Of a stretch of DNA of 64,000 bases, positions 4,387 to 64,000 are shown piece by piece; position 1 is the first letter of the stretch; each line of letters opens with the position of its first letter. The position numbers and the translations under genes are program-made. This DNA is from Candidatus Liptonbacteria bacterium. GTDB taxonomy: Bacteria > Patescibacteriota > Minisyncoccia > UBA6257 > JACOXY01. The notes under the pieces were generated by a model. That model made no database searches. It was given only the letters and a program-made list of their open reading frames with translations, and was not told the origin of the DNA. The stretch covers positions 7,234 to 71,233 of the forward strand of contig JACOXY010000014.1 of assembly GCA_016182095.1 (NCBI GenBank). Direction: 5' to 3'.

Positions 4387-7300
4387 CTAAATATCTAAAT
4401 TTTTGACCCCAGCGGCGTGAGTTTGGATAAATTGTTTTCTGGGCTCAACTTCGTCGCCCATTAAAATATCAAAAAGTTTATCGGCGTCTTCGGCATCTTT
4501 TACGGTTACAACCAGCATTTTGCGGGTAGCGGGATTCATGGTGGTATCCCAAAGCTGATCCGGATTCATCTCGCCCAAACCTTTATATCGCTGAACATTA
4601 ACCGCAACTCGCCTATCCCCCGCCGCCTCTTCAGCGTCCGCTTTCTCCGCTTCTTTTAATTCATGCTTTCCGGCTCGCGCTTTGCCAAATTTCACGATGA
4701 TCGCTTCTTTTTCGTTTTCATTATATGCATACTGAACCTCTTTGCCTGATTGAATTCTAAAAAGCGGCGGCTGGGCTATGTAAAGATAGCCGCCATGAAT
4801 AACCTGCGGAAAATAACGATAGAAAAGGGTGAGTAGCAGGGTGCGAATGTGCGCCCCATCAACGTCGGCATCGGTCATAATAACAATCTTGTGGTAACGA
4901 ATTTTTTCTATATTAAAGTCCTGGGCGATGGCGGTCCCCAGAGCCATCACCAGCGCGCGGATTTCTTTATTGGCAAGCATTTTATCTATGCGCGATTTTT
5001 CTACATTCAAAATTTTCCCGCGCAAAGGAAGTATTGCCTGCGTGCGCCGATCGCGGCCCATTTTTCCGCTATTGTGCACAAACACGCCAGAAGCCAATGC
5101 GAAATTATGAGTTTTAGGAACTTCAAGGTCATAAACATCAACTTTTTCATTAAGCCAAAGGATTTCTTTAATTTTGTGGTTATGACGCTCTACTGCTTCA
5201 ACTAAATTTCTTGCGTCGCTTCCAAAAAATCTTTTAACAATAGTTTCGGCGCGTAGCAAGTTTTTGTCATTAGTTGCTTTTCTTAGATTCTCATACTCAC
5301 TAAAGTCAATTTCGCCTTTAGTTTCGTAGATACCGCGCAAAGCTTGCAGGGCTTTCTGCTTATAGGTTTCGTTATAAGCAAGTTTTCTCCTTAAACGAAA
5401 TTCGGGCGTCCATTGATCTTTGGTTTTGCCGCTGCGCCATTTTTTAAGCTTCTCATCATTCCATTGTATTTTAGCGAATTCGGAGTAAGCAAGACGTTTT
5501 TCTGGATGGTTTTCAAAATAAGCTCGCGTGCGATTCGCTTGATCGCGCCGATTTTTTTCTTCTGACCAATATTCTTTTTGCGCTCTGCTTAAAATGCTCG
5601 CGCTCTGTGCCCGATAGGCCGCATTATTGTGATAAAAATCCAAAAATTTATCAGTCATAAATTGCTTATAATCTTTGTCTTGCCACTGTTTTTGGGCACG
5701 CTCACTTAGCATCTTTCTCATTTGTGGAGTAGACATGCTGGCTCTAATTTTATTCCTGTATTCAGGTGTCTGCCTTATTAGACGAAGTTTTTCTAAAACT
5801 TGAGGGGATCGCAAAAAAATATCCGCCATTTTACGATGCAGGCCTAAATGATCTTCGCTTGAAAGTCGTGTAATATTTTCCGGGTTATTGTTTAGTTTAT
5901 TGAAATCTATATGGTGTCTGTGCGCGCCAATGCTTTTTTCGTAAATATTATTTTTCAGATTATAGTCGTCAGATAGCATGTGGGTAAAAATCCATTTCTG
6001 GTTCTGCGAATTAAAAACCATTTCGTATCCGTCAATTGTAATGCGACCGCCAATTTTGGATATTTTTTTGTATAACGGCATTAGCGAGTCTTGCGATAAA
6101 AGATCCCTAGCTTTTTTATAAGAACCATTAAGAAGCATGAATTCGTGGTCTGGCGTACAAATAATTTCCTCGCCATTATCAAGCACAACTTTAACAACTT
6201 CTGTATTCTTTTTAGTAATCCTAGGATAAACTATTTTCTGTATTGCAACTGCCCCATCTTTATCAATGGTGTAGCAATAGTTTTGTATGCCTTTTTTATC
6301 CTCATGGACCAAATCCTTAAAAGACAAATTGCGTCCATCAGCCAGTGAAACTTTTGTGTTGCCCGAAAAACATCCTCCGGCTGAATCGCCTTCCACTATA
6401 AACAATTCCGATTCGGCCGGGTCTCGCGATGAGCAATCGGCTAATTTCCCTGGCAAGGTTAAGCCCTCAAGAATTCCTTTTCGCAAAACGGTGTCTTTCG
6501 CGGCCTTAGCGGCTTTGCGAGCTTTAGCCGCAAGCAAACACTTTTCAACCATTCTCCGCGCGTCAGCCGGATGTTTCTCTAAAAATTCTTTCAAAGACTC
6601 GCTTACCACCGATTCAACAACCGTTCTCGCCTCCGGAGTCCCAAGGCGGGCTTTGGTTTGCCCTTCAAATTGCGGTTGGGAAAGTTTAACGGAAATGACC
6701 GCCACCAAACCTTCGCGCACGTCATCGCCCGTCAAATTGTCGTCTTTTTCCTTTAAGTAACCCTCGGTTCGCGCGTAAGAATTGATGGCGCGGCTCAAAG
6801 CCGATTTAAACCCGGTTGAGTGCATGCCGCCATCGGAAGTATAGATGTTGTTGGCAAAACTTAACTCTTTTGATTCAATATCCTCGGTATAAGTAAAAGC
6901 TACTTCTACTTCTATGTTATTTTCGCTTTTTTGGATGTAAAAAGGATCGTCCTGCAGAACTTTCGCGGCAGGAGTAAGGTGCCGCAAAAACGAAAGCAGT
7001 CCGCCGTCAAATTTAAGGGCGTAATATTTTGGCGCGTCAGTCCTTAAATCCCAAAAGTCAATTCTAACTCCCTTTGTTAAAAACGCCTGCTGGCGCAAGT
7101 GGTCCAAAATATACTTCCAATCAAATTTAATCTCTCCGCCACCGGTTGAAAAAATCTCCGGGTCTGGCTCAAAAATAACTTTAGTGCCAATTTGATCGCA
7201 TTTACCGACCCTCTTCACGACTTTCTTCGCCTTGCCTCGTTCATATTCTTGCTCATAAAGATAGCCATCCCGACAAACTTCGGCTTTAAGATAAATTGAG

Positions 7301-7716
7301 AGCGCGTTAACCACAGAAACCCCAACGCCATGCAAACCACCGGAAACTTTATAAGAATCACCGCCAAATTTGCCCCCGGCGTGAAGCGTGGTCATAACTG
7401 TTTCCAGGGCGGATTTTTTCGTCTGCTTATGAATATCAACCGGGATGCCGCGCCCATTATCGGTAACCGCCACCCTATTCCCCGGCAAAAGCTCAACTTT
7501 GATAGCAGTGGCATACCCAGCCATCGCCTCATCAATAGAATTATCAACCACTTCCCAAATCAGGTGGTGCAAGCCGGCGCTGTCGGTTGTGCCAATATAC
7601 ATCCCGGGGCGCTTTCTTACCGGCTCAAGACCCTCCAAAACATAGATGTCCTTTGCTTCATAGCTCGCGTGCTTTGACGCGTCTGGAGTTTTTTTAGTTT
7701 CTTTTACTTTTGCCAT
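4387..7716 (-). CDS. gyrB: DNA gyrase subunit B, interrupted by an in-frame intein
   Basis: 1109-aa ORF; GHKL ATPase motifs, TOPRIM EGDSAGG and a C-terminal GyrB tail; host protein is about 675 aa once the 434-aa intein is removed. Confidence 0.95.
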   Translation of the reverse strand: MAKVKETKKTPDASKHASYEAKDIYVLEGLEPVRKRPGMYIGTTDSAGLHHLIWEVVDNSIDEAMAGYATAIKVELLPGNRVAVTDNGRGIPVDIHKQTKKSALETVMTTLHAGGKFGGDSYKVSGGLHGVGVSVVNALSIYLKAEVCRDGYLYEQEYERGKAKKVVKRVGKCDQIGTKVIFEPDPEIFSTGGGEIKFDWKYILDHLRQQAFLTKGVRIDFWDLRTDAPKYYALKFDGGLLSFLRHLTPAAKVLQDDPFYIQKSENNIEVEVAFTYTEDIESKELSFANNIYTSDGGMHSTGFKSALSRAINSYARTEGYLKEKDDNLTGDDVREGLVAVISVKLSQPQFEGQTKARLGTPEARTVVESVVSESLKEFLEKHPADARRMVEKCLLAAKARKAAKAAKDTVLRKGILEGLTLPGKLADCSSRDPAESELFIVEGDSAGGCFSGNTKVSLADGRNLSFKDLVHEDKKGIQNYCYTIDKDGAVAIQKIVYPRITKKNTEVVKVVLDNGEEIICTPDHEFMLLNGSYKKARDLLSQDSLMPLYKKISKIGGRITIDGYEMVFNSQNQKWIFTHMLSDDYNLKNNIYEKSIGAHRHHIDFNKLNNNPENITRLSSEDHLGLHRKMADIFLRSPQVLEKLRLIRQTPEYRNKIRASMSTPQMRKMLSERAQKQWQDKDYKQFMTDKFLDFYHNNAAYRAQSASILSRAQKEYWSEEKNRRDQANRTRAYFENHPEKRLAYSEFAKIQWNDEKLKKWRSGKTKDQWTPEFRLRRKLAYNETYKQKALQALRGIYETKGEIDFSEYENLRKATNDKNLLRAETIVKRFFGSDARNLVEAVERHNHKIKEILWLNEKVDVYDLEVPKTHNFALASGVFVHNSGKMGRDRRTQAILPLRGKILNVEKSRIDKMLANKEIRALVMALGTAIAQDFNIEKIRYHKIVIMTDADVDGAHIRTLLLTLFYRYFPQVIHGGYLYIAQPPLFRIQSGKEVQYAYNENEKEAIIVKFGKARAGKHELKEAEKADAEEAAGDRRVAVNVQRYKGLGEMNPDQLWDTTMNPATRKMLVVTVKDAEDADKLFDILMGDEVEPRKQFIQTHAAGVKNLDI
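5071..6372 (-). other. intein (Hint splicing domain with an HNH endonuclease-like domain and a basic repeat-rich region) in gyrB, inserted immediately after EGDSAGG
   Basis: starts with Cys (CFSGNTKVSLADG...TPDHEF), ends ...VYDLEVPKTHNFALASGVFVHN followed by Ser+1; internal HRHHIDFNKLNNNPENITRLSSEDH is an HNH motif; residues 449-882 of the ORF. Confidence 0.8.
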
Positions 7717-7907
7717 TTTTAAATGAAGAGCGTAGCGATGAATCTACAAAAATGAGCACCCCGCTCTAATTTTGCTATCACCATATCTTAAAATTCAGTT
7801 GGAACTATTTATATGATATTTGGTGCGACCTGCGCGTGCCGAATAGGCACATCCCGCTAATGGGCGAAGCGGGTCGCCATGGCATATTCCGCAAAATTAG
7901 AGCGGGG
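7717..7907. promoter_or_regulatory. family-2 element upstream of gyrB: conserved leader (AAGAGCGTAGCGAT...GAGCACCCCGCTCTAATTTTGC) whose far partner GCAAAATTAGAGCGGGG lies about 115 bp away; the spacer carries GC-rich local hairpins
   Basis: 17-bp perfect inverted repeat at 7759-7775 and 7891-7907; the leader is shared with the parB and rpsR upstream regions. Confidence 0.45.
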
Positions 7908-8242
7908 TAGCCATCTCAACAAAATAATGCTCCCCCCAGGAGCTAGATTTTCTTAATATTTTATACTTACAGTTTAGCATAAAACGAGTCTAAAAACAAC
8001 AGAAATTGGACTTAAAAAGCAACGCTACCCCGCACTAAATTCCGCACATTATTTGCTCTAAACTGCTTTTATTATCGTCACGGAAACCGCCTCAACTCCG
8101 GGTAGTGAATTGAATGAGTTTCGGCTTTGGCAAGCGCTCTTTGTTCGCTAACATAGAGAATTAGCGCGGGGTTCTGTTGCTTGTAGCTTTTCGAACTGCG
8201 CGCTTCGCGCTTGTTCTTAAAGACAAGCAACGAAAAAGAGGG

Positions 8243-8704
8243 CTATTTGCCCTCTCCATAATACGTGAAAACCAAGTTCGCGAGCCTCACAATAGCTTCT
8301 TCAAAAGTGGGCGCGCCACAGCAAAGGCGATGATCAACGCTGGGCTGACCGTCAGGAAATATCTTTCTCATTTCTTCCGCTTGCCCGGGGTAAGCAGTAA
8401 ACTCCTTTTCATAGTCGTTGACCTTGATCAATGGCCCGCACTCCAGCCAAACACGAGTTTCGGTATTTTTCGCCTCATCGTCATCAACTTCTTTAGTCAA
8501 GGGATTTACCTTGACCGCATCCCAGTCAAGGTACACATTAAAAGCGCTTCCCAAAATTCCATCATCAAAAATCGGGTGCTCCTCCAAAAATCTGCACGAT
8601 TCGTAGAAATCGGTAAATCTTTCTTGCGGTTCACCAGAAATAAAATCTCCAAGCATTTCTCTCGGCGACTTGCCACCAGGAAGTTTTCCAAAGCCAACAG
8701 CCAT
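8243..8704 (-). CDS. hypothetical protein (153 aa)
   Basis: clean ORF, no recognised motif. Confidence 0.5.
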   Translation of the reverse strand: MAVGFGKLPGGKSPREMLGDFISGEPQERFTDFYESCRFLEEHPIFDDGILGSAFNVYLDWDAVKVNPLTKEVDDDEAKNTETRVWLECGPLIKVNDYEKEFTAYPGQAEEMRKIFPDGQPSVDHRLCCGAPTFEEAIVRLANLVFTYYGEGK

Positions 8705-51310: not shown

Positions 51311-51349
51311 TTACTATACCCCATACCCTATGCCCCATACCCTTTTCAT
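51311..51349 (-). other. anomalous rpoC 5' end: ATG overlapping the rpoB stop (TAATG), 11 codons of G-rich repeats (GGGTATG GGGCATA GGGTATG GGGTA, G-quadruplex-like), then in-frame TAG TAA, then (AAAACT)x3 leading into conserved beta-prime sequence
   Basis: read directly from the minus strand; an alternative +1-frame ATG (51338-51336) would join the rpoC frame with a single-base shift inside the (AAAACT)3 repeat. Confidence 0.6.
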
Positions 51350-54300
51350 TATTTCTGTCTATCTTGTTTTATCGCCTGACCTTGATCGTCCAATAACTCC
51401 ACGCCCAATCCCAGCGCCTTTAACTCATTGGTTAAAACACTAAAGGTCGCGGGGACATTAGGCGCTTTTATCGGCTCATCCCGTATAATTGATTCAAAAG
51501 CCGATGAACGACCCGCAATGTCGTCTGATTTAATGGTCAGCATTTCCTGAAGCGTGTAAGCCGCGCCGTAACCTTCAAGAGCCCAGACTTCCATCTCTCC
51601 AAATCTCTGGCCACCGAACTGCGCCTTGCCTCCCAATGGCTGCTGTGTAACCAGTGAATATGGGCCGATTGATCTCATGTGAATCTTGTCCTCCACCAAG
51701 TGGTTAAGTTTCATGATATAGATATAACCAACCATAACCTCCTTATCAAAAGACCTGCCGACTCTGCCGTCATAAAGCTTTACCTTGCCGCTTTCGGGAA
51801 GATTAGCGGCCCGCAGTTCCGCCCTTATTTCTTCTTCGGAGGCCCCGGATAAAGCCGGGGTTACCGCCCGGAAACCATTCACGTGGGCCGCCCAACCTAA
51901 ATGGGTTTCCAAAATCTGCCCGATATTCATGCGAGACGTAACGCCCAAAGGATTTAGTATAATGTCAACCGTGGTGCCATCCTCAAGATATGGCATATCT
52001 TCCACCGGCCGAATTTGCGAGATAACGCCCTTGTTGCCATGGCGGCCGGCGAGTTTGTCGCCAGCTCTCACATTTCGTAATTGCGCTATCTCAACCTGGA
52101 TTCTTTTTATAACCCCGGGCTCAAGCCTATCTCCTCTCTCGCGTGAAAAAATTTTAACACCCACAATACGTCCGTATTTCCCATGCGGCAAGGTTAATGA
52201 GGTATCCTTGACATCACGAGCTTTTTCACCGAATATGGCCCGCAATAATCTTTCCTCCGACGTAAGTTCGGTCTCTCCCTTGGGAGATATTTTCCCCACG
52301 AGAATATCCCCCGATCTCACCTCGGCGCCGACCCTCACAATCCCCTCCTCGTCAAGATTTTTTAGCTTTTCCTCTGAAACATTTGAAATGTCGGGGGTAA
52401 TTATCTCCGGACCAAGTTTGGTGTCGCGAACATCGCAGTAAAAATCTTCTATGTAGATTGAAGAAAATCTATCCCCCTGAACTACGCGCTCCGAAAGAAT
52501 AATGGCATCTTCAAAATTGGCGCCCTCCCAAGAAGCAAAAGCAACCAAAAGATTTTGGCCCAAACCCAAAACGCCGTTTACCGTGCCGGGGCCGTCAACC
52601 AGAGTTTCCCCCTTCTTAACGACACTCCCTTTAGTAAGCAATAATCTCTGCGAAATAGAGGTGCCTTGATTGGATCGCTTAAAATTAAGCAGTTCGTAGG
52701 TTTTGGTGCCTAATTTTTTATACTTTAGAGTAAGTCCCGTTGCGTCAGCTTTAACGATTTCGCCATTATCTTCGGCCTTAATAAGGTAGCCCGAATCATG
52801 GGCGGCTTTTTCCTCAACGCCAGTGCCCACATAGGGAACTTGCGGCTTAACGGCAATTACTGCCTGTCTCTGCATGTTTGAGCCCATTAGGGCGCGGTTT
52901 GCGTCATCATGCCTTAAAAATGGGATTAAAGATGTTGAGACGCTAATAAATTGCTCCGGAGAAATATCCATAAAATCAACCTCTTCCTTTGGGCACGTGC
53001 CCGGCGCGCCCTTAATTCTTGCCTCAATGGAATCCTCAACAATTTTCTTGCCATCCAATTTAATACCGCCATGGGCAATTTTATATTTTTCCTCTTCCAG
53101 GGCATCCAGCCAAACCACTTCGTTCGTCACTACGCCGTTCTTTACTTTTACATACGGGGTTTCCAAAAAACCATAGGGGCTAATTCTGGCATATCCGGCT
53201 ATATAATTTATGAGCCCGATATTGGCACCCTCCGGGGTTTGAATCGGACAGATGCGGCCGTAATGCGATGTGTGGACATCGCGCACTTCAAATCCGGCTC
53301 TTTCGCGAGTCAGCCCGCCGGGGCCCATCGCGGAAAGACGCCTCTTATGCTCAATCTCAGACAAGGGATTTACCTGATCCATGAACTGTGAAAGCTGGGA
53401 TGACGCAAAAAACTCCTTAACTGTGGCCATTAGAGGCCTCACATTCAAAAGAGCGCCTGGGGCGAAACTTTCTTCCGCGATAGTGGACATTCTGTCCTGC
53501 ACAACCCTACGAAGGCGCGCGAAGCCAACCCTCATCTTGTTTTGCAAGAGTTCGCCAACGGCGCGAACGCGCCTGTTGCCAAGGTGGTCTATGTCATCCG
53601 GTTCCGCCATTGGATCATTATTAAGACGGATAAGTTCTTTAACTATCAAGACCAAATCATCAAATCTCAAAAGCCGCGAGTCAGATTTAATCTGTAATCT
53701 CTGATTCATTTTAAATCTTCCAACCATTGAAAGGTCATAGCGGTCAAACCTCTTAAACATGGCGTCAATTAAAGATTTGGCGTTTTCCGGCGTAGCCAAG
53801 TCGCCGGGCCTTAAACGTTTGTAGATTTCCAGATAAGATTCGTCAAAATTTTTGGCCGCGTCTTTTTTCAAGGTTGCCTGAAGATGTTTTATCGGCCCAA
53901 CATCAATATCTTTGAAAAGTTCGGTAAACGCGCTTCCCTCTTCATATTTTTTGCCTTCCATGGAAGCGAAGGCGCGAAGCAAATCTGTTATGGGAACTTT
54001 GCGACGGCGATCAATTTTAACCCCAATAAGCCCGTCCGGATCAGTTTCCAATTCAAGCCAAGCTCCCCGGTTAGGAATTACTTTAGCGCCAAAAAGCTTT
54101 TTGCCTCTGTAAACAACGGCCGTAAAATAAACTCCGGGAGATCTTATGAGCTGTGAGATAACAACTCTCTCAACCCCATTTATAATAAAAGTCCCCCTCG
54201 CGGTCATGAGGGGCACATCTCCGATGTAAACATCTTGGGTCTTATCTTTTTTGCTTTTCAGATTCACTAAGCGCAAGGTGGCCCTAAGTGCCGCTTCAAA

Positions 54301-54534
54301 AGTCAATCCTTTCTCAATTGACTGGACTTCATTATATTTTGGTTCATCAAAGCGGAATTCGTCAAAATGGAGTTCGTACTCTTTGCCGGTATAATCCTTA
54401 ATCGGAGACACCTCTCCAAACAGCTCTTTCAAGCCATCACCCAAAAACCAGCGATATGACTGTGTTTGAATTTCTGACAAATCTGGCTGGGGCGTTAGAG
54501 CTCCTACACCATGAGAAAAGTATTTTATAGTCAT
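51349..54534 (-). CDS. rpoB: DNA-directed RNA polymerase subunit beta
   Basis: 1061 aa with conserved beta-subunit blocks throughout. Confidence 0.95.
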   Translation of the reverse strand: MTIKYFSHGVGALTPQPDLSEIQTQSYRWFLGDGLKELFGEVSPIKDYTGKEYELHFDEFRFDEPKYNEVQSIEKGLTFEAALRATLRLVNLKSKKDKTQDVYIGDVPLMTARGTFIINGVERVVISQLIRSPGVYFTAVVYRGKKLFGAKVIPNRGAWLELETDPDGLIGVKIDRRRKVPITDLLRAFASMEGKKYEEGSAFTELFKDIDVGPIKHLQATLKKDAAKNFDESYLEIYKRLRPGDLATPENAKSLIDAMFKRFDRYDLSMVGRFKMNQRLQIKSDSRLLRFDDLVLIVKELIRLNNDPMAEPDDIDHLGNRRVRAVGELLQNKMRVGFARLRRVVQDRMSTIAEESFAPGALLNVRPLMATVKEFFASSQLSQFMDQVNPLSEIEHKRRLSAMGPGGLTRERAGFEVRDVHTSHYGRICPIQTPEGANIGLINYIAGYARISPYGFLETPYVKVKNGVVTNEVVWLDALEEEKYKIAHGGIKLDGKKIVEDSIEARIKGAPGTCPKEEVDFMDISPEQFISVSTSLIPFLRHDDANRALMGSNMQRQAVIAVKPQVPYVGTGVEEKAAHDSGYLIKAEDNGEIVKADATGLTLKYKKLGTKTYELLNFKRSNQGTSISQRLLLTKGSVVKKGETLVDGPGTVNGVLGLGQNLLVAFASWEGANFEDAIILSERVVQGDRFSSIYIEDFYCDVRDTKLGPEIITPDISNVSEEKLKNLDEEGIVRVGAEVRSGDILVGKISPKGETELTSEERLLRAIFGEKARDVKDTSLTLPHGKYGRIVGVKIFSRERGDRLEPGVIKRIQVEIAQLRNVRAGDKLAGRHGNKGVISQIRPVEDMPYLEDGTTVDIILNPLGVTSRMNIGQILETHLGWAAHVNGFRAVTPALSGASEEEIRAELRAANLPESGKVKLYDGRVGRSFDKEVMVGYIYIMKLNHLVEDKIHMRSIGPYSLVTQQPLGGKAQFGGQRFGEMEVWALEGYGAAYTLQEMLTIKSDDIAGRSSAFESIIRDEPIKAPNVPATFSVLTNELKALGLGVELLDDQGQAIKQDRQK

Positions 54535-54859: not shown

Positions 54860-55796
54860 TTACCTTAAATACAATGCCCTGTTTAAACTGTGCTCCTCCA
54901 GATCCTTGCTGAAAATGGTTTTCCCGGTTTTCGGGTCGGAAAGATAAAACCAATAAGAACTTTGCTGCGGATTAATAGCAGCTCTTATCGCTTCAAGACC
55001 GGGGTTTGCGATGGGCGTAGGCGGCAAGCCTTTATTGATATAAGTATTATATGGTGAGTCTATTTTTAAGTCAAGTGGGGTAATCGGGTGGCATGGCATG
55101 GGCACAACATAACATATTGTAGCATCTACCTGCAATGGCCAGCCGGATTTGATTCTTTTTTGGAGTATCCCGGAAACAATGCGCCTCTCTTTAAAATCGG
55201 TAAGTTCTTTTTCCAATAGTGAAGCTAAAATAATGGTTTTGTAGGCATTGGAATTCTTTGTGTCGGAAATAAGATTATTTTTTGCCCCCAAGCCCAAGAG
55301 GCCGCTTACTTTTTCGTCAAAATTATCCAAAAATTTTTGAACCACGTCCTTGGGCTCGGAATCTATATGAAATTTATAGGTATCCGGGAAAAGAAAGCCC
55401 TCCAAATCTTCCCGATATTCCGTGAGTTCGTTCGGCGAGATAACCCCGCTATCCGATAAGATTTTGTCTATTTCTTTGAGCGTGGCCCCTTCGGGAACGA
55501 GAACCTCCACCTCATCAACGCCTCCTTTTACTAAAACGCGAACCAGCCCATAGGCGGAATAACTGGCTCTTAATTTATAAAGTCCCGGTTTCTTTTTGAA
55601 GAACATCGGCTATGTCGCTTACCCCAAAACCGCGTTTTATTAAAACAGTCTTTTCTTCAATACTACCTATATCTGCCGGCATCATTCCGTAAATTAAATA
55701 TATAAAAAAAACCGCGAACACCGACGCGCCCCAAATTATGTAGGAGGATTTTTTTCGCTCATTCAAAATGTCGCTTGTTGTTTTTGTTGAAATCAT
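54860..55796 (-). pseudogene. mltG: endolytic murein transglycosylase MltG/YceG, split into two frames (frameshift near 55575-55606)
   Basis: N-terminal TM plus start of the YceG domain in ORF 55575-55796; the remainder (LQVDATICYV, YNTYINKGLPPTPIANPG) in ORF 54860-55606; the overlap lies in an A-rich tract (AAAAAGAAA). Confidence 0.65.
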
Positions 55797-55971
55797 TTTA
55801 TAGACCTTTTGTACAATTCCTTTTCTACTGCAATTTCCATATTTTGGCTACGGCTTTGTAAAAATTTCTTGAAATATATTCTGTATATTCCTTCAAAATT
55901 TTTACTTCGCCTCGCTCAAGATCTGAAAATTTCGTTACGAAAAGAATTGTACAAAAGGTCTTTCTATATTA

Positions 55972-57060
55972 TCAAGAAATGCGTCCGGCTATGCCATATG
56001 CGAGCCCCAAAAGAAAAAAACTGGTTATTAAATTAGAACCGCCGTAGCTGAAAAAAGTGAGGGGCACGCCTATAACCGGCAAGAGTCCGATTGTTGAGCC
56101 GATATTAATAGCAAAGTGAAGACCGAAGACCGTGGCGGTCCCTAGTGAGACAAATTTGCTGAAATTATCTTCGGTTCTTAGGCCAATTTTTAGGATTATA
56201 AGAATTAAATACACAAAAATCAACATAAAAACAAGCGCGGCCGCGAGCCCCCATTCCTCAATAAAGGCGGCAAAAATAAAATCGGAGTATGATTCGGGCA
56301 AAAATCCCAGCTGAACTTGGGTGCCCTGGCCGTATCCCTTGCCAAAAAATCCAGCCGAGCCAATGGCGATTTTAGATTGGATAACGCTGAAATTTACCCC
56401 CAGGGGGTCAAGCTCGGGGTTAAAAAGCCCCATTATCCTATTTTTCTGGTAATCGGCTAAAAAATTATTCCAGGCGAGGAATCCAAAAAATGCGGCAATG
56501 AGTATAAAAAGGGCGAGGTGTTTTATCTTAAGGCCAGAGATCAGAAGAAAGCCAAGCCAGATTGAAGCCAGAATTATAGCTGAACCAAGATCGGGCTCCA
56601 AAATAACAAGCCCCGCCGGAATAATCATTAAAACTGCCGAGAGCAAAATAGTTCTCACACTCGCTATCTTCGCGTGATACTTGGAGAAAAAATAGGCAAG
56701 GATAATTATCAAACCAGCTTTGGCGAATTCCGATGTTTGAAATTGAAGGGGGCCGAGCACAAGCCACGCTCGACTGCCGCGAATTGTAGGAGCAAAAAAA
56801 TAAGTAGCTATTAAAAGCGCGACTGAAATGCAATAAATACCATATACAAACCATGGATAAGCCGCGTACGGACGCGTATCAAAATAATGAAAAAAAACAA
56901 TAACTCCAATACCCAAAATAATCCAAGCAACTTGTCCCATGAAAAAATTACCGGGAACGCTTGAAAGCGTCACAAGACTCAAAAAAAGAAGCAGAAGGGC
57001 CGGTATTAAAAGAGAGCGCTGGAGAGAAGTCACAGAAATAAATAAAAAATCAAAATGCAA
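55972..57060 (-). CDS. SEDS-family peptidoglycan glycosyltransferase (RodA/FtsW)
   Basis: 10-TM topology and conserved ...GYGQGTQVQLGFLPESYSDFIFAAFIEEWG... block. Confidence 0.85.
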   Translation of the reverse strand: MHFDFLFISVTSLQRSLLIPALLLLFLSLVTLSSVPGNFFMGQVAWIILGIGVIVFFHYFDTRPYAAYPWFVYGIYCISVALLIATYFFAPTIRGSRAWLVLGPLQFQTSEFAKAGLIIILAYFFSKYHAKIASVRTILLSAVLMIIPAGLVILEPDLGSAIILASIWLGFLLISGLKIKHLALFILIAAFFGFLAWNNFLADYQKNRIMGLFNPELDPLGVNFSVIQSKIAIGSAGFFGKGYGQGTQVQLGFLPESYSDFIFAAFIEEWGLAAALVFMLIFVYLILIILKIGLRTEDNFSKFVSLGTATVFGLHFAINIGSTIGLLPVIGVPLTFFSYGGSNLITSFFLLGLAYGIAGRIS

Positions 57061-57151
57061 AAATCAAAATTGATGAAGCTTGAAAAATTACTTTGCAATT
57101 TTTCAAGCAACCGGAATTTTTATTTTTGATATCTAATTTTTGATATTGCTT

Positions 57152-57916
57152 TTACTGTCTTACTGCCTCATAAAACAGCCGCGTCTTAGTTAAATCAACA
57201 TTCGGCGCGGCCGAGATCGGATATTCTATCTGAAAAAATCTTTCTTCAAACGCTTTGACGTCGCGGACTTGGGTCTTGGATACTCCCAGAAGCGTGCCGT
57301 TTATGCTATAAAACAAGGCTCCGATATCAACCTGCGTAAAAAGCAGTGTTTCCTCGTTTTTTATATTTCCACGGATAAAAATTTCACCGCTTTTTACATC
57401 ACTATTTACTTGTCTGAAAGTAAAGTTTGGTTTCCTGAATTTATTAACTGACTCCCAGACTGGATCCCCTAATGTGATTTTAGGCGAACCAATCACCACG
57501 CTCCCAGCGCCATCCAACTGCTTAACAATATATTTTTCCTTGTCACCGGGATAAATAAAAGTTTCGTCTTTAAAAGTTTTGATGATATTTCCGCTTGCGC
57601 CATAAACGTCAAGCTGGTAAGGCAGTTTTAGCGCGCCAAAGCGAGTATTTGGGTTTTCAAGTTTCACCAAAATAACGGGGTCCTGCGCCAAAAAAGAAGT
57701 CCGAAGAACAACCTCAATCGGCTTTAGGCTTTTTATTTCACAAGACATGCAAGAAGCGCCACCGCAGTCCACTCCCGCCTCATCTTGATTTTGCTTTCCG
57801 TCAAAGCAGGTCGGCTCCGGTTTCAAAATAAAATAGGGAGCATAAATTATCGCAAAAAAGAAAGTGGTGTAAAAAATGCCATAAAGAAATTGTTTGCCGA
57901 TGCGCCTTGGTTCCAT
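57152..57916 (-). CDS. hypothetical membrane-anchored protein (254 aa) with a Cys-rich segment
   Basis: N-terminal TM helix; CFDG...VDCGGASCMSCE. Confidence 0.5.
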   Translation of the reverse strand: MEPRRIGKQFLYGIFYTTFFFAIIYAPYFILKPEPTCFDGKQNQDEAGVDCGGASCMSCEIKSLKPIEVVLRTSFLAQDPVILVKLENPNTRFGALKLPYQLDVYGASGNIIKTFKDETFIYPGDKEKYIVKQLDGAGSVVIGSPKITLGDPVWESVNKFRKPNFTFRQVNSDVKSGEIFIRGNIKNEETLLFTQVDIGALFYSINGTLLGVSKTQVRDVKAFEERFFQIEYPISAAPNVDLTKTRLFYEAVRQ

Positions 57917-57955
57917 AAATTCATCATATAAAATCTTTTTTCTCTCGCGCTCTCC

Positions 57956-58091
57956 GCAATATATAAATTATCCTTGCTTCTCCTAAAAAATGAATAAGAA
58001 AATGCCGAACTCAACCTGGTTTTGCTAAAGCAAAACTGCGGGATTCAAACAGCGGCATTTTCTTATTTTTTACTCGAAGCTTCGGTAATTT
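57956..58091. repeat. left arm of an about 135-bp near-perfect inverted repeat; each arm is a nested palindrome resembling a bidirectional terminator
   Basis: reverse complement of 59503-59638 with about 2 mismatches; inner 15-bp stem AATAAGAAAATGCCG/CGGCATTTTCTTATT with flanking A- and T-runs. Confidence 0.85.
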
Positions 58092-59502
58092 ATATATCTT
58101 GCTACGCGATGCTTATTCAAAAAGATTTTATGCTCTTACATATATTAAGATAATAGCAGAAAAAATAAAATAGAAAAAGCCCCGCCAACTTGTGACGAGG
58201 CGGCCCCGCGCAGTTTATCAATGCCCGGGGTGGTGGCTGGGGGTGCCGTAGCACCTAGGGCCTGCCACCTCGGTCAGAGACTGGATCCTTGAAGCGCGTC
58301 CCCTTGTGGGGCCGCCTTCAAGTTGTGAGCCACTGGCTCACAAACAAGCGCGATCCAATCTCCTGGAAAATTTTAAGAACTCGCGGAGGGAGATGTCGGC
58401 CTATCCCGTGGCTCGGTTGCCGGCTGGTCGGGCCAGGCAGAACGGCAGCTTGCGCTGCGGCCTTGTTTCCGTCGTTGCCCAGCGCCCATTCCCCGACAGT
58501 TTACCGGACATCTCCTCCCGCGAAATCTGGGCTCGCAGCTTCGCACAATTGACAACTGACACTTAACAATTGACTTGTGCAGACAAGCGCAAATTTCGTG
58601 GGATAAGTTTATTTTATTTCCTGAGCCTGTCGAAGGAATACAATACTGTAGTGCTTCGACTACGCTCAGCAACTAAATTTTCACCCCCCCAAGTAAATGT
58701 TTTTCACTATCTGCCTTTCCTGAAATATCTTACTTGAATGAAACGATTGACTGAAAAACACTTACTTGGTACATTACAGCTACGCCCAGAACTTCGTCGG
58801 GCCCGCGCGCACGACATACGGTGCGTTAGCCGGCCACCTCTGGACGTAGGACTTGCGGCGACCTCGAGATCACCGCGCACCAATGAAAAGAACTTGCGAA
58901 GCTCGGAAGAACAACTTCCGTCGTCTTACGGTTCGGAAACCCCGAACGCTGCAGCGGTAACAGCTCCCACGGCCAGCGCCAAGCACCAGCATCCGAGCTC
59001 CCGGCGAATATTGGAGGTGTGCTGCCCGGACCAGCACACCCCCGCTGCTTTAGCCAATCTCCAGGAAGTGTCTCGGGCCTCCCAAGATTGGATTTCAACA
59101 TTATAGCATACTATCCAGAATAATGCAAGTAGTCAAAAAAACAGCGTGAAATAAGGGTTTTATAAGCAAGTGAGAAGCCCAACTTTGTGACATCCGATGT
59201 CCAGAAACAAAAGACATTAATATTCGGGACATCGGAAGTCAATGCAAAGTCCAACTTTGCGACATCCGATATCTAAAGATGTGGCTGCGGAAAGAAGCCC
59301 AACTTTGTGACTTCCGATGTCCAGAAACAAAAAACTTCAACCCTTCGACTTCGCTCAGGGCAGGCATTTAGGACTTCGGATGTAAGGGGTTATCCTACTA
59401 TATACTGCCCCACTTGGCGCCAAAAAGCCACACGAGGGGTAAGACCTAATATTTGGAAAATGGCGCAACATTTTTTTATGAGCATCACACAGCAATATCT
59501 AT
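58092..59502. other. about 1.4-kb GC-rich non-coding structured element of unknown class, bounded by the 135-bp inverted repeats
   Basis: no ORF longer than 122 codons despite high GC; overlapping short ORFs in all frames; many perfect local and long-range helices; three about 42-bp direct repeats at 59174-59335. Confidence 0.4.
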
Positions 59503-59638
59503 AAATTATCGAAGCTTCGAGTAAAAAATAAGAAAATGCCGCTGTCTGAATCCCGCAGTTTTGCTTTAGCAAAACCAGGTTGAGTTCGGCATTTTCTTAT
59601 TCATTTTTTAGGAGAAGCAAGGATAATTTATATATTGC
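59503..59638. repeat. right arm of the about 135-bp inverted repeat
   Basis: see the left arm. Confidence 0.85.
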
Positions 59639-59669
59639 AGGGGGCGCGAAGAAAAAAACGTTGTGCCAT

Positions 59670-61550
59670 TTATTCAACAGCCAACCCTAACGCCTTTTTT
59701 CTCCTCTCTTCATTCTCGTCCAAAACCCTTTTCCTTATACGCACATTTTTAGGAGTCACCTCCACCAACTCATCATCCCCGATGTATTCCAGCGCAGCTT
59801 CCAGATCCATGGTCCTTGGAGTATTAAAGTGTTCATCCAACCCTTGATTTTTTGAACGCATGTTGGAGAGTTCTTTTTCCTTGCAAACATTTAATCTGAT
59901 GTCTTCCTCGCGCGCATTCTCTCCCACTACCTGGCCCTTGTACACCTCCACTCCGGGACCAAAAAATAAAACTCCCCTGTCTTGAACATTTAGTAGTCCG
60001 TACATTTTAGTAACGCCCGTTTCATGCGCTACGAGTGAACCGCGCTCTTTATCTTTCCAATCTTTATAATCCTCCGCAAACTTATCAAAAAGAGAGTTCA
60101 TAATTCCCATGCCTTTGGTATCGGTTAAAAATTCACTTCTGTATCCGAAAAGCCCCCTCGTAGGAATAAAAAATTCTAAGAAAGTAGTGCCTAAAACAGA
60201 TTTGCTTTGCAAATCTGTTCGGCCGGACAATCCTTCAGATTGTCTTAGGCCATCCACTTTCATATTCTGCATAATTCCATGCCTTCCGCCTAATTTTTGA
60301 ATTACAACCCCGGAATAAATCTCCGGAACTTCTATAAAAACTTTTTCATATGGAGCCATAAGCTTTCCGTCAATTTCTTTTAAAATCACCTGCGGTCGCG
60401 AAACTTGAAACTCATATCCTTCCCTGCGCAACCGCTCAATTAAGATCGCGAGATGCAACTCGCCCCTCCCGGACACTATCCAACCACCTACACCATTTGC
60501 CTCATCTAACACCTGTAAAGCCATATCGGTTTCAAGCTCCCGAAATAATCGCTCGCGAATTTGGCGTGAAGTTGTAAACTGCCCCTCTCTCCCCGCAAAA
60601 GGAGAATCGTTGGCACTGAAGGTCATTTTTACCGTCGGCTCCTCTATATCCAAGAGCGGCAAAGCCACGGGATTATTTGCGTCCGCTATGGTTTCGCCAA
60701 TATTTATATCCGGGATTCCAGAAATTGCCACAATATCTCCAGCTAAAATTTCCTTCGCATCCACGCGGCCCAAACCTTCAAAAGTCATGACTGATGTAGG
60801 ACGGTATTTTTTTACTTCGCCACTTCTATTTATATGAGCCACCTCAACTCCGGCTTTGAGAATGCCATTATAAATTTTCCCGGTCGCGATTCTACCTTTA
60901 AAACTATCTCCCGATACGGTTGTAACCAAAATTTGAAGCGGTTTATTAACATCTCCTGTTGGCGCCGGCACGTGGGTTAAGATTGTTTCAAATAGTGGCG
61001 TCACATCTTGCATTTTAGAAACATCCGCTTCCAAGCCAGCCAAGCCCTGCTTTCCTACCGTATAAATAACTGGGAAATCCAAGAGCTCGCTGGGCGCGCC
61101 GAGCTCAACAAACAAATCAAATGTTTTATCAAGCGCAAATGGCGGCCGGGCATCCGGTTTATCAATTTTATTTATCACCACGATGATTTTAAGATTCATC
61201 GCGAGGGCTTTTTTCAAAACAAATCTGGTCTGCGGCATGGGACCCTCTTTGGCATCAACCAAAAGGAGAGCGGCATCCGCCATGTTTAAAACACGCTCCA
61301 CCTCTCCTCCGAAATCAGCGTGGCCCGGCGTATCAATTATGTTAATTTTTACACCACTCCATACCACGCTCGCGTTTTTACTAAAAATCGTAATACCACG
61401 CTCGCGTTCAAGTTCGTTGGAGTCCATGATAAGCCCCGCCGCTTCGGTTTCTTTTCCAATTTTAGTTTTTGATTGCCTTAAGAGCGCATCAACCAGTGTA
61501 GTTTTCCCATGGTCAACGTGCGCTATGATAGCGATGTTTCTGATGTTCAT
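59670..61550 (-). CDS. typA: translational GTPase TypA/BipA
   Basis: MNIRNIAIIAHVDHGKTTL..., G-domain motifs (DTPGHADF, NKID); EF-G-like domains; start at the conserved Met (the ORF-track N-terminal extension is leader). Confidence 0.9.
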   Translation of the reverse strand: MNIRNIAIIAHVDHGKTTLVDALLRQSKTKIGKETEAAGLIMDSNELERERGITIFSKNASVVWSGVKINIIDTPGHADFGGEVERVLNMADAALLLVDAKEGPMPQTRFVLKKALAMNLKIIVVINKIDKPDARPPFALDKTFDLFVELGAPSELLDFPVIYTVGKQGLAGLEADVSKMQDVTPLFETILTHVPAPTGDVNKPLQILVTTVSGDSFKGRIATGKIYNGILKAGVEVAHINRSGEVKKYRPTSVMTFEGLGRVDAKEILAGDIVAISGIPDINIGETIADANNPVALPLLDIEEPTVKMTFSANDSPFAGREGQFTTSRQIRERLFRELETDMALQVLDEANGVGGWIVSGRGELHLAILIERLRREGYEFQVSRPQVILKEIDGKLMAPYEKVFIEVPEIYSGVVIQKLGGRHGIMQNMKVDGLRQSEGLSGRTDLQSKSVLGTTFLEFFIPTRGLFGYRSEFLTDTKGMGIMNSLFDKFAEDYKDWKDKERGSLVAHETGVTKMYGLLNVQDRGVLFFGPGVEVYKGQVVGENAREEDIRLNVCKEKELSNMRSKNQGLDEHFNTPRTMDLEAALEYIGDDELVEVTPKNVRIRKRVLDENEERRKKALGLAVE

Positions 61551-61744
61551 AATTAAAACTATTTCCTGAACTTGTCGAAGGAATACAATATTGTAACCCT
61601 TCGATAAACTCGGGGTATAAAGTTTCTTCGCTCTGCTTAGCATTACCAACGCGAGCGAATGCGGATAATTCTATCACACTTAAAAGAGCTTGACAAGTAA
61701 TATATGACGTGTTAAACTTGGCACAGCAAGAAAGGAGGGTTCAG

Positions 61745-61984
61745 ATGGTTGAACTTATTTACCGCAAAAATAAGGAAGAAGAGACTATGCTGAAAAGTGA
61801 AGCATGGAAGATACAGGTGCGGCAGAATGAAATAATAATGCTAATTGATCTGACTATGACTAACTCACTACTTGCACTGCACGCAACCACAGCAGAGGAG
61901 CGGGAGGATAACATTGCAAGCATTAGAAAACTCCACACGGAGTTCACAGAGAATCAGAGAAAACTTCTCGCCCTTTCTGGCTGA
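61745..61984 (+). CDS. small hypothetical protein (about 79 aa)
   Basis: AAGGAGGG Shine-Dalgarno 7 nt upstream of the ATG at 61745. Confidence 0.45.
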   Translation: MVELIYRKNKEEETMLKSEAWKIQVRQNEIIMLIDLTMTNSLLALHATTAEEREDNIASIRKLHTEFTENQRKLLALSG

Positions 61985-62057
61985 TCCGGCCAAAAAAAAG
62001 AAGCGTTAAGTTCCCCAAGGCAACCCCGCAAAGGTTGCCTTTTTAGGGAGTGTGAGT

Positions 62058-63302: not shown

Positions 63303-64000
63303 GATTTATTTTTGCAAAATAAATCATTAAATCTGGTGGTTGATAATATTTATGATAATTTAATTTATTTTAAACTTTTTCGCATTTTGCCAAAAAACTG
63401 AAAGTTGTATTACTGGGCATAGTTTTAGCATACGGAAATTATGGGAAAATAACAAAGCTACGCACCAGAACAAGTTCGGTGCGTTACTTCACTTCGTTTA
63501 GCTTTCTCTCACAAATTAAAAAAGTTTGTTCTACTTTATCAAGTTCTTCGGAACTGAAGGCGCTACGGTGCCGGCCCCTAACCCACTGCGGTTGGGGGTT
63601 TTTTATTTTAAACAAAAATCCGCCTCTCGGCGAAATTTTTCTGCTCTTCTTTGTGCTGGCGTACCCTACTTTCCCAGTGATAGTATCATCAGGCTTAGAC
63701 GCTTTCACTTCTCTGTTCGGAATGGGAAGAGGTGGTGCACATCCAAGTAAAACACCAGCACAAAAAAGACCAGATTAAATTTTAATATAGAAATTAGCAG
63801 ATATATGCCTTCCTTAGGAAGGGCACAGTCAGCATTGGGATGGTCGGCACCCATTAGTACCCTTTGGCTCGGCACTCTCTACACAAATATCGCGAAACAT
63901 TGGAAGCTCAAAATTATGCCGGAGCTCGCGGCGCGACGACGAAAGTGTACTCGAAGAGTACATTGAGGAGGAGCAACAAAGAGATCATCTAATTTTGAGT

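Follow-up and report, generated by a model that had tools for sequence, protein, structure and literature searches.

Few large structured bacterial RNAs fall outside the known families, and unexpected biology has come from several of those already known. The ornate non-coding RNA (ncRNA) families OLE, GOLLD, ROOL, raiA and HEARO have, to our knowledge, a fixed architecture. In rRNA (rrn) operons, boxA is the loading site for NusB and S10. boxA-dependent antitermination shields long untranslated RNAs (rRNA and CRISPR arrays) from Rho (PMC7665894), and the published boxA consensus for gamma-proteobacteria is GYTCTTTAANA (PMC5725501). Here, we analysed a 64,000-nt stretch of a Candidatus Liptonbacteria bacterium genome (contig JACOXY010000014.1; hereafter the window), which belongs to the Candidate Phyla Radiation, a group whose RNAs are almost unexplored. 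Between typA (minus strand, 59670-61550) and a gene for a 254-aa protein (minus strand, 57152-57916), the window carries a segment that an earlier note on this DNA had singled out. With moderate confidence, we read the feature as a vertically inherited chromosomal gene that encodes a large structured ncRNA of an undescribed family and is located at ~59094-58170 on the minus strand, and we propose that its long untranslated transcript is served by Nus (boxA) antitermination.

Promoter, terminator and fold of the RNA gene

The ncRNA gene (58170-59094, minus strand) is ~920 nt long and has 55.5% GC. Its promoter (59100-59128, minus strand) consists of TTGCAT (59128-59123), 17 nt and TGC-TATAAT (59108-59100), which is an extended -10 element, and the predicted start is near 59094. 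The promoter was missing from the promoter-scan list because its -35 hexamer matches at only 3/6 positions, and it was read from the sequence instead. The same promoter motif, TGCTATAATG, heads the homologous RNAs in related genomes, where the scan gave 12/12 matches with TG (L017 2114-2143, L021 6305-6334 and L022 3533-3561). A terminator scan placed an intrinsic terminator at the other end (58170-58201, minus strand), with a 9-bp stem containing six G-C pairs (58201-58179) and then the U-run UUUUUCUAUU. The homologous RNAs likewise end in comparable sites of a hairpin and a U-run.

The 926-nt minus-strand RNA folded with a minimum free energy of -413.7 kcal/mol, compared with -338.7 ± 9 for shuffled sequences (z = -8.3). 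Two GC-rich blocks folded alone gave z = -4.9 and -3.0, and the RNA of L017 gave z = -5.9. The earlier note had described the segment as highly structured, GC-rich and free of open reading frames (ORFs) above 122 codons, and had proposed a candidate novel large structured RNA. The structure is borne out by the z-scores of the RNA and of the flanking repeats (-9.0 and -4.1), and the long-range helix that it quoted is inverted pair I4 (58376-58397 with 58507-58528). The longest ORF (58738-59106, plus strand) does encode 122 aa. The claim of a GC content far above background applied to two blocks, 58180-58560 (62.2%) and 58780-59095 (61.1%), and not to the whole span, which has 47.4% GC against 43.3% for the window. 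The central part (58561-58779) has 37% GC, the spacer (59096-59446) 44% and both repeat arms 34-35%; the interior between the arms is a GC mosaic and not a uniform 1.4-kb GC-rich body. The proposal of a novel RNA gained support from the same-strand promoter and terminator, the fold beyond shuffles, syntenic homologues in five lineages, compensatory helix changes and an excess of G.U over A.C on the minus strand. A comparison with Rfam covariance models, one of the checks that had been suggested, matched no family.

When the 5' domain of the window RNA was compared with that of L022, the mismatches were spread evenly by phase, with no 3-periodicity, and the indels were 23, 1, 4 and 1 nt long, i.e., not multiples of 3. 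The two spurious ORFs of the region had no match in Pfam, and the conserved stretches of their translations covered only 5-6 codons. With a longest ORF of 122 aa, no Pfam match and no codon periodicity, the region fits neither a protein-coding gene nor a pseudogene.

Homologous RNAs at the same site in related genomes

Relatives were located via homologues of the 254-aa protein and of TypA, using sequences from ENA, NCBI and Logan assemblies of several different samples. Homologous RNAs of ~0.35-2.1 kb were found in five other lineages (L017, L022, L021, L004 and L007), all from related groundwater Candidatus Liptonbacteria. The RNA lies downstream of typA (TypA 79-85% identical), usually just before the 254-aa/rodA/yceG/rpoBC genes.

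The shortest version was found in L017-L020 (four assemblies, TypA 85%), with an RNA of ~350 nt in a gap of ~400 nt between typA and a 249-aa gene (L017/L018). Here, the 12/12 promoter with TG overlaps the typA stop codon, and the RNA ends in a hairpin and U-run terminator. The gene order in L017/L018 is typA, the RNA, the 249-aa gene, rodA, yceG, rpoB and rpoC, the full run being read in L017. In L022 (TypA 79%), a 12/12 promoter precedes an RNA of ~1.15 kb with three modules, and its 5' domain is 72% identical to that of the window over 309 nt. In L021 (TypA 80%), a 12/12 promoter precedes an RNA of ~2.1 kb (6305-8445) with five modules. The L021 contig end overlaps by 18 nt with the start of L006 from the same sample, and L006 begins just upstream of the 249-aa gene. 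Two blocks of the L021 RNA, ~7205-7465 and ~7975-8290, resemble an internal segmental duplication. The remaining two loci contained the 3' part of the RNA: in L004 (254-aa protein 72%) it lies directly before the 254-aa homologue, and in L007 (44%) it lies upstream of that homologue with a 77-aa ORF between. No RNA copy was found in L005 or L006.

None of the relatives' loci contained sequence like the repeat arms that flank the RNA in the window. These armless relatives have the RNA at the same locus; it is therefore vertically inherited, which argues against foreign cargo. So far as found, the family appears restricted to Liptonbacteria-like Parcubacteria.

A core hairpin and a variable number of modules

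The core hairpin (58689-58769, minus strand) has an 18-bp AU-rich stem (pair I6) around a 45-nt loop. The L017-L020 copies match it at 96% identity, and it is still recognisable in L021 and L007 (alignment A5). Of the five lineages with coverage of its 3' strand, AAAAACAUUUACUUGG, four share it unchanged and L022 differs by one change. A covariance model of the core (R1) detected a single copy in each RNA (96-121 bits) and none in L023, L024, L005, L002 or L003. The core is near-invariant even where the adjoining 254-aa protein is only 44% identical to that of the window. This near-invariant hairpin, with its 45-nt loop, is where a partner protein or RNA would most likely bind.

The second recurrent element is a two-hairpin module with the consensus YCGARRYUUG-loop-CARAYYUCG directly joined to CGGGAGGAG-loop-CUCCUCCCG. 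In the window it occupies 58380-58602 (minus strand), most of the first GC block, and consists of helix A (58590-58602 with 58512-58525) and helix B (58504-58522 with 58381-58398), the latter being the helix that the earlier note quoted. The loop of its first hairpin contains GTCAATTGT twice, 13 nt apart (minus strand, 58535-58566). The number of full-size modules per RNA ranges from 0 to 5: one in the window, at least one in the partial RNA of L004, three in L022 and five in L021, with only a minimal form in L017. Modules and core were confined to this transcription unit when the 64-kb window and the flanks of the loci were searched.

Ten modules were aligned as trimmed, anchored segments (A3) because variation in loop length made MAFFT misalign whole modules. 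In A3, 82.7% of the cells in the helices were paired, compared with 35-53% when the partners were slid. Compensatory changes were present in 12 of the 26 pairs, and none of 500 shuffles reached the observed covariation. G.U pairs outnumbered A.C mismatches by 29 to 12, indicating that the promoter (minus) strand is the RNA strand. The module and covariation statistics support an RNA structure and fall short of a full phylogenetic test.

The window RNA is a mid-sized version of the family, enlarged by GC-rich helices and a REP-like hairpin. Its GC-rich 5' domain (58785-59094, minus strand) is the second GC block and shares 72% identity over 309 nt with L022 3617-3921. Within it, 58785-58998 is a multi-helix junction common to the window and L022, and the 5' extension (58999-59094) was found in this genome only. 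The two-sequence consensus fold of the domain contains 86 pairs, 8 of which show compensatory changes. The REP-like hairpin (58613-58677, minus strand; GCTGAGCGTAGTCGAAG...CTTCGACAGGCTCAGG) was recognised by self-blast. A second copy at 61560-61621, just upstream of the typA start, gives the typA ORF a spurious N-terminal extension, and the L004 contig starts within the same REP, at the matching place in its RNA. The 3' domain (58202-58373, minus strand) contains UUCCAGGAGAU, three GC-rich hairpins and a CCGAGGUGGC...GCCACC hairpin; its motifs recur in L017 (CUUUCCAGGAGAU, CCCGAGGUGCC) and L021 (AUCCGAGGGUGGCC). The family plan would run from a strong sigma-70 promoter with an extended -10 element through a GC-rich multi-helix 5' domain and the AU-rich core hairpin to 0-5 modules, followed by a boxA-like GYUCUUU after the module copies and an intrinsic terminator.

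Upstream of the RNA promoter, a spacer (59137-59446) reaches to the right arm and contains three direct and two inverted copies of ACTTTGYGACWTCCGATGTCC as well as the REP-like CTTCGACTTCGCTCAGGGCAGG. The ACTTTGYGACWTCCGATGTCC copies lie at 59173-59340, 59223-59241 and 59361-59379 (repeat family D1, pairs I5/I7), and those within 59173-59379 are laid out like iterons or operators. In relatives, the spacer showed only a weak 67% match to a hairpin at L022 4879-4953, downstream of the L022 RNA, and the spacer is only possibly part of the RNA gene.

boxA-like motifs and a proposed antitermination mechanism

The motif G[CU]UCUU[UA] occurs 12 times in sense and once in antisense across the six RNAs, compared with 1.45 ± 1.1 in shuffles. 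In the window, GUUCUUA (58374-58380, minus strand) lies directly 3' of helix B, and a second copy, GUUCUUU (58887-58893, minus strand), lies 3' of the closing helix of the 5' domain. Every occurrence starts 0-4 nt past the 3' strand of a helix. The mean unpaired probability is ~0.14 for the 10 nt upstream and 0.47 for the motif, with a background of 0.35. A hairpin thus lies immediately upstream of the motif, the arrangement of boxB. In L007, a hairpin lacking a U-run is followed by GUUCUUUCGACAAUUU, which resembles the E. coli rrn boxA, UGCUCUUUAACAAUUU.

From this short motif and its context, we infer that the units of a hairpin and GYUCUUU may keep the polymerase on the long untranslated RNA. 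In the proposed mechanism, the RNA would be strongly transcribed as a unit of its own, and the hairpin-GYUCUUU units would work like the boxB/boxA signals of rRNA operons, loading NusB and S10 onto RNA polymerase. The polymerase so loaded would let the transcript escape truncation by Rho, and some of it may continue into the 254-aa/rodA/yceG/rpoBC cluster. A bolder version takes the unit as a 'surrogate rRNA operon' and a new class of modular large RNA, in which hairpin-boxA modules multiply by duplication and load or titrate NusB/S10, coupling the expression of downstream rodA, yceG/mltG and rpoBC to the transcription-translation state. We regard this version as speculative and rather improbable.

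Several observations weigh against the antitermination reading and the RNA family behind it. The match to boxA is limited to the 7-nt core of a gamma-proteobacterial consensus, and the 3' half after that core varies (UCA, AAA, CCA, UAC, GAU, UCC, UAA and CGACAA). Antitermination of the rrn type is known mainly against Rho, yet this RNA ends in a strong intrinsic terminator, followed in the window by the left arm. The comparison covers six lineages including the window, with L004 and L007 partial, and the module copies are paralogous and non-independent. No RNA copy was found next to typA in L023 and L024, although their TypA is 78-79% identical. Finally, no convincing separate promoter was found for the downstream gene in L017, which fits a leader equally well.

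Such a cis-acting leader or attenuator of the 254-aa/rodA/yceG/rpoBC operon, in which alternative module pairings or a bound factor would gate passage through the terminator, is an unlikely alternative. In the window, L017/L018, L004 and L007, and probably in L021 together with L006, the 254-aa homologue follows the RNA directly and on the same strand. In L017 and L004, only ~20-30 nt separate the terminator from the start codon, and the last hairpin of L007, without a U-run, runs straight into an ORF. In nearly all modules, moreover, the central CGCGGG can pair with an upstream CCCNCG or a downstream CCCGCG, which could mean a switch and not a static scaffold. Covariation favours neither pairing, because the contested positions never vary. 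The L022 RNA, however, is not followed by that operon; the distance from the RNA to the gene ranges from ~20 to >450 nt, and in the window a second hairpin of 200 nt intervenes. The 6-fold variation in length and the varying number of modules are also unlike a defined aptamer with an expression platform.

The flanking inverted repeats

The arms at 57936-58147 and 59447-59658 are 212 nt long and 87% complementary (repeat finder, I1); blastn gave 89% over 214 nt. The earlier note had described flanking inverted repeats of 135 bp, each itself a palindrome. The repeats are real, and the 135-bp arms proved to be the near-perfect core of longer ones: 57956-58085 and 59509-59638 are identical at 129/130 positions, with ~70% identity on either side. 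The palindromes were also found (I2, I3, I8 and I9), with CGAAGCTTCG in each arm (58075-58084 and 59510-59519). The right foldback arm (59447-59669, minus strand; palindromes I2/I9) is a hairpin of ~210 nt that starts directly after the typA stop codon and folds with -76.2 kcal/mol (z = -9.0). The left foldback arm (57929-58147, minus strand) is a hairpin of ~200 nt (z = -4.1) that separates the RNA terminator from the 254-aa gene, which starts at 57916. Both strands of the arms carry an A-run, a GC-containing stem and a U-run, as terminators do. The distal stems are unlike between the arms, yet paired in both. The 64-kb window contains no further arm copies.

Judged by their sequences, the arms are best read as two diverged copies of a foldback unit of ~200 nt that is particular to this genome and separate from the RNA, not its ends. 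They most likely act as bidirectional, terminator-like insulators flanking the RNA gene. The uniformity of the arm core suggests that it is kept through gene conversion or selection.

A pile-up of selfish palindromic DNA, namely REP-like hairpins or miniature inverted-repeat transposable elements (MITEs) in a permissive intergenic region, with no RNA function, would account for part of these features. REP-like hairpins lie at 58613-58677, 61560-61621 and 59341-59365; the arms and a further foldback at 55800-55961 show that such elements are present in this genome, and the number of modules differs among close relatives. We nevertheless consider this explanation very improbable. In the 64-kb window and the flanks of the loci, modules and core occur only within this transcription unit, whose promoter and terminator are conserved, and the core remains near-invariant while the neighbouring 254-aa protein falls to 44% identity. 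Moreover, DNA palindromes do not predict the strand-specific excess of G.U over A.C.

The earlier note had also considered foreign non-coding cargo. A mobile composite element, or a segment that inverts between the 212-nt repeats, would fit the long inverted repeats with a 129/130 core, a GC content that locally departs from the background and the outward-facing promoter-like hexamers that we read in the arms. This idea is barely tenable, since synteny largely refutes it: the RNA occupies the orthologous site in relatives without arms, and in the same orientation. No recombinase or transposase was found within ~6 kb (the neighbours being rpoB, yceG, rodA, typA and a CNNM-family gene), and phage, plasmid and viral collections yielded no match. 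Taken singly, each arm is palindromic and absent in relatives, as expected of a foldback element or MITE, with two copies in 64 kb and no discernible target-site duplication.

That the segment is an inverted chimera of the assembly, or the remains of a protein gene, is highly improbable. Inverted repeats do break short-read assemblies, and Logan contig L001 stops inside the left arm, where the repeated core starts. L001 nevertheless independently reproduces the left junction (57917-57985, 100% identity), overall identity between the arms is only 87-89% (11-13% divergence) where an artefactual duplication would be identical, homologous RNAs came from assemblies of several samples, and a gene is contradicted by the missing codon periodicity and Pfam match and by the frame-shifting indels.

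Search for known RNA families

Rfam 15 gave no relevant match in window 55000-62000 (E <= 1), in the L017 RNA (E <= 10) or in the 2.1-kb L021 RNA (E <= 5); the scans returned only chance matches of the miRNA and snoRNA type, far under threshold. The families so compared include RNase P, SRP and 6S RNAs, group I/II introns, riboswitches, OLE, GOLLD, ROOL and HEARO. ARAGORN found no tRNA or transfer-messenger RNA (tmRNA). By eye, the P4 motif of RNase P, a tmRNA T-arm or CCA end and the domain IV motif of the signal recognition particle (SRP) are all missing. Literature searches returned no description of such an RNA. Blastn against phage and plasmid records gave no similarity, and viral contigs scanned for core, arm and module patterns were empty. 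On these comparisons, we rate the RNA as a probable new family to which no function is assigned.

Other candidates were rejected or judged unlikely. A CRISPR- or TIGR-like array and a type III toxin-antitoxin ToxI were excluded by the lack of regular repeats, the modules being 135-225 nt long and diverged; TRF detected no tandem-repeat array in 57800-59800, just a 14-nt x 1.9 trace in the left arm. A 6S RNA is unlikely as far as the sequence goes: the RNA is multi-branched and not a single rod with a central bubble, and no covariance-model match appeared. A small peptide or a tmRNA-like tag in the core loop was rejected, as neither a start codon nor a tRNA-like domain is present and no more than two substitutions are informative. 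A metagenome scan with AAAAACATTTACTTGGGGG returned nine unrelated chance matches, and its G-run is not conserved (GGAGAG in L017). A better search pattern for the family than AAAAACATTTACTTGGGGG is AAGTGTTTTT N(40-62) AAACATTTACTTGG.

Neighbouring genes

Downstream of the 254-aa gene, the same strand carries rodA, yceG and a 1061-aa ORF at 51349-54534. This ORF is probably rpoB, by position, because rpoB occupies that place in related loci. The 254-aa protein has an N-terminal hydrophobic segment, is membrane-anchored and contains a Cys-rich CxDGxQNQxExGxDCGGxC motif. It belongs to no Pfam family (57152-57916), and a search of 5.8 billion proteins turned up only 13 homologues; an identical protein is annotated in a Candidatus Liptonbacteria metagenome-assembled genome. 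Exact look-ups returned one 934-bp contig only for this protein and none for TypA.

In the distant relatives L002 (1-958), L003 (1-3279) and L005 (1-90), the 254-aa/rodA/yceG/rpoBC cluster directly follows 23S-5S rRNA. A contig search with the 254-aa protein retrieved only two distant Saccharibacteria loci (37-39% identity), in which 23S-5S rRNA precedes the gene. A LAGLIDADG-type ORF (AGFLDGDGS motif) occupies L003 2266-2703, flanked by the 23S rRNA match, which ends at 2170, and the 5S gene (3170). In the window, a 5S gene lies at 63653-63760, 240 nt before the window end, and is separated from the 254-aa cluster by the CNNM-family gene, typA and the RNA.

The foldback at 55800-55961 is a hairpin of ~160 nt between rodA and yceG and the origin of weak Rfam matches resembling miRNA precursors. 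It is kept in L022 (5402-5563, 80% identity) and in L007 (2735-2853, 76%, right after rodA), and may represent another conserved hairpin RNA or a terminator in the gene cluster.

Comparison with known systems

The family is narrow so far, with six lineages, and is known here from its sequence. Its evolution is unusual, one RNA ranging from ~0.35 to 2.1 kb in close relatives via gain and loss of a covarying two-hairpin module. If true, the antitermination proposal would provide a concrete link to Nus factors beside RNA polymerase genes; even if it fails, the core hairpin and the module are a defined target for covariance-model and structure work.

The arms alone resemble foldback or MITE repeats and bidirectional terminators, each being an AT-rich unit of ~200 nt that forms one long hairpin with an A-run and a U-run on both strands and is not at the orthologous sites of relatives. 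They differ from such repeats in having two copies in 64 kb and no definable target-site duplication, and the 99% identity of their core against ~70% in the flanks suggests gene conversion or selection rather than recent transposition.

Like the sponge RNAs CsrB and RsmZ, the RNA has a variable count of similar stem-loop units with a short conserved motif per unit. Its units, however, are 135-225 nt long with two hairpins and are not short GGA hairpins, and the conserved GGGAGGAG is base-paired and not presented in a loop.

With the ornate ncRNAs OLE, GOLLD, ROOL, raiA and HEARO, it shares great length, a multi-helix fold, a high GC content against an AT-richer genome, its own transcription unit, a narrow phylogenetic range and the lack of an assigned function. 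Unlike them, it has no match in Rfam 15, spans a 6-fold range of lengths by gain and loss of modules and concentrates its primary-sequence conservation in one AU-rich hairpin.

rrn operons carry one boxA in the leader and one in the spacer, whereas the motif occurs up to four times per RNA here. Only the 7-nt core matches, the AANA half is not conserved, and no rRNA or CRISPR array follows the RNA. The likeness to the boxB-boxA of rrn operons, and to the boxA of CRISPR arrays and suhB, lies in a stable hairpin followed within a few nucleotides by GYUCUUU, the boxA core. In more distant relatives, the same downstream cluster stands directly behind 23S-5S rRNA. The transcript itself is long, untranslated and strongly promoted, the setting in which boxA shields RNAs from Rho (PMC7665894).

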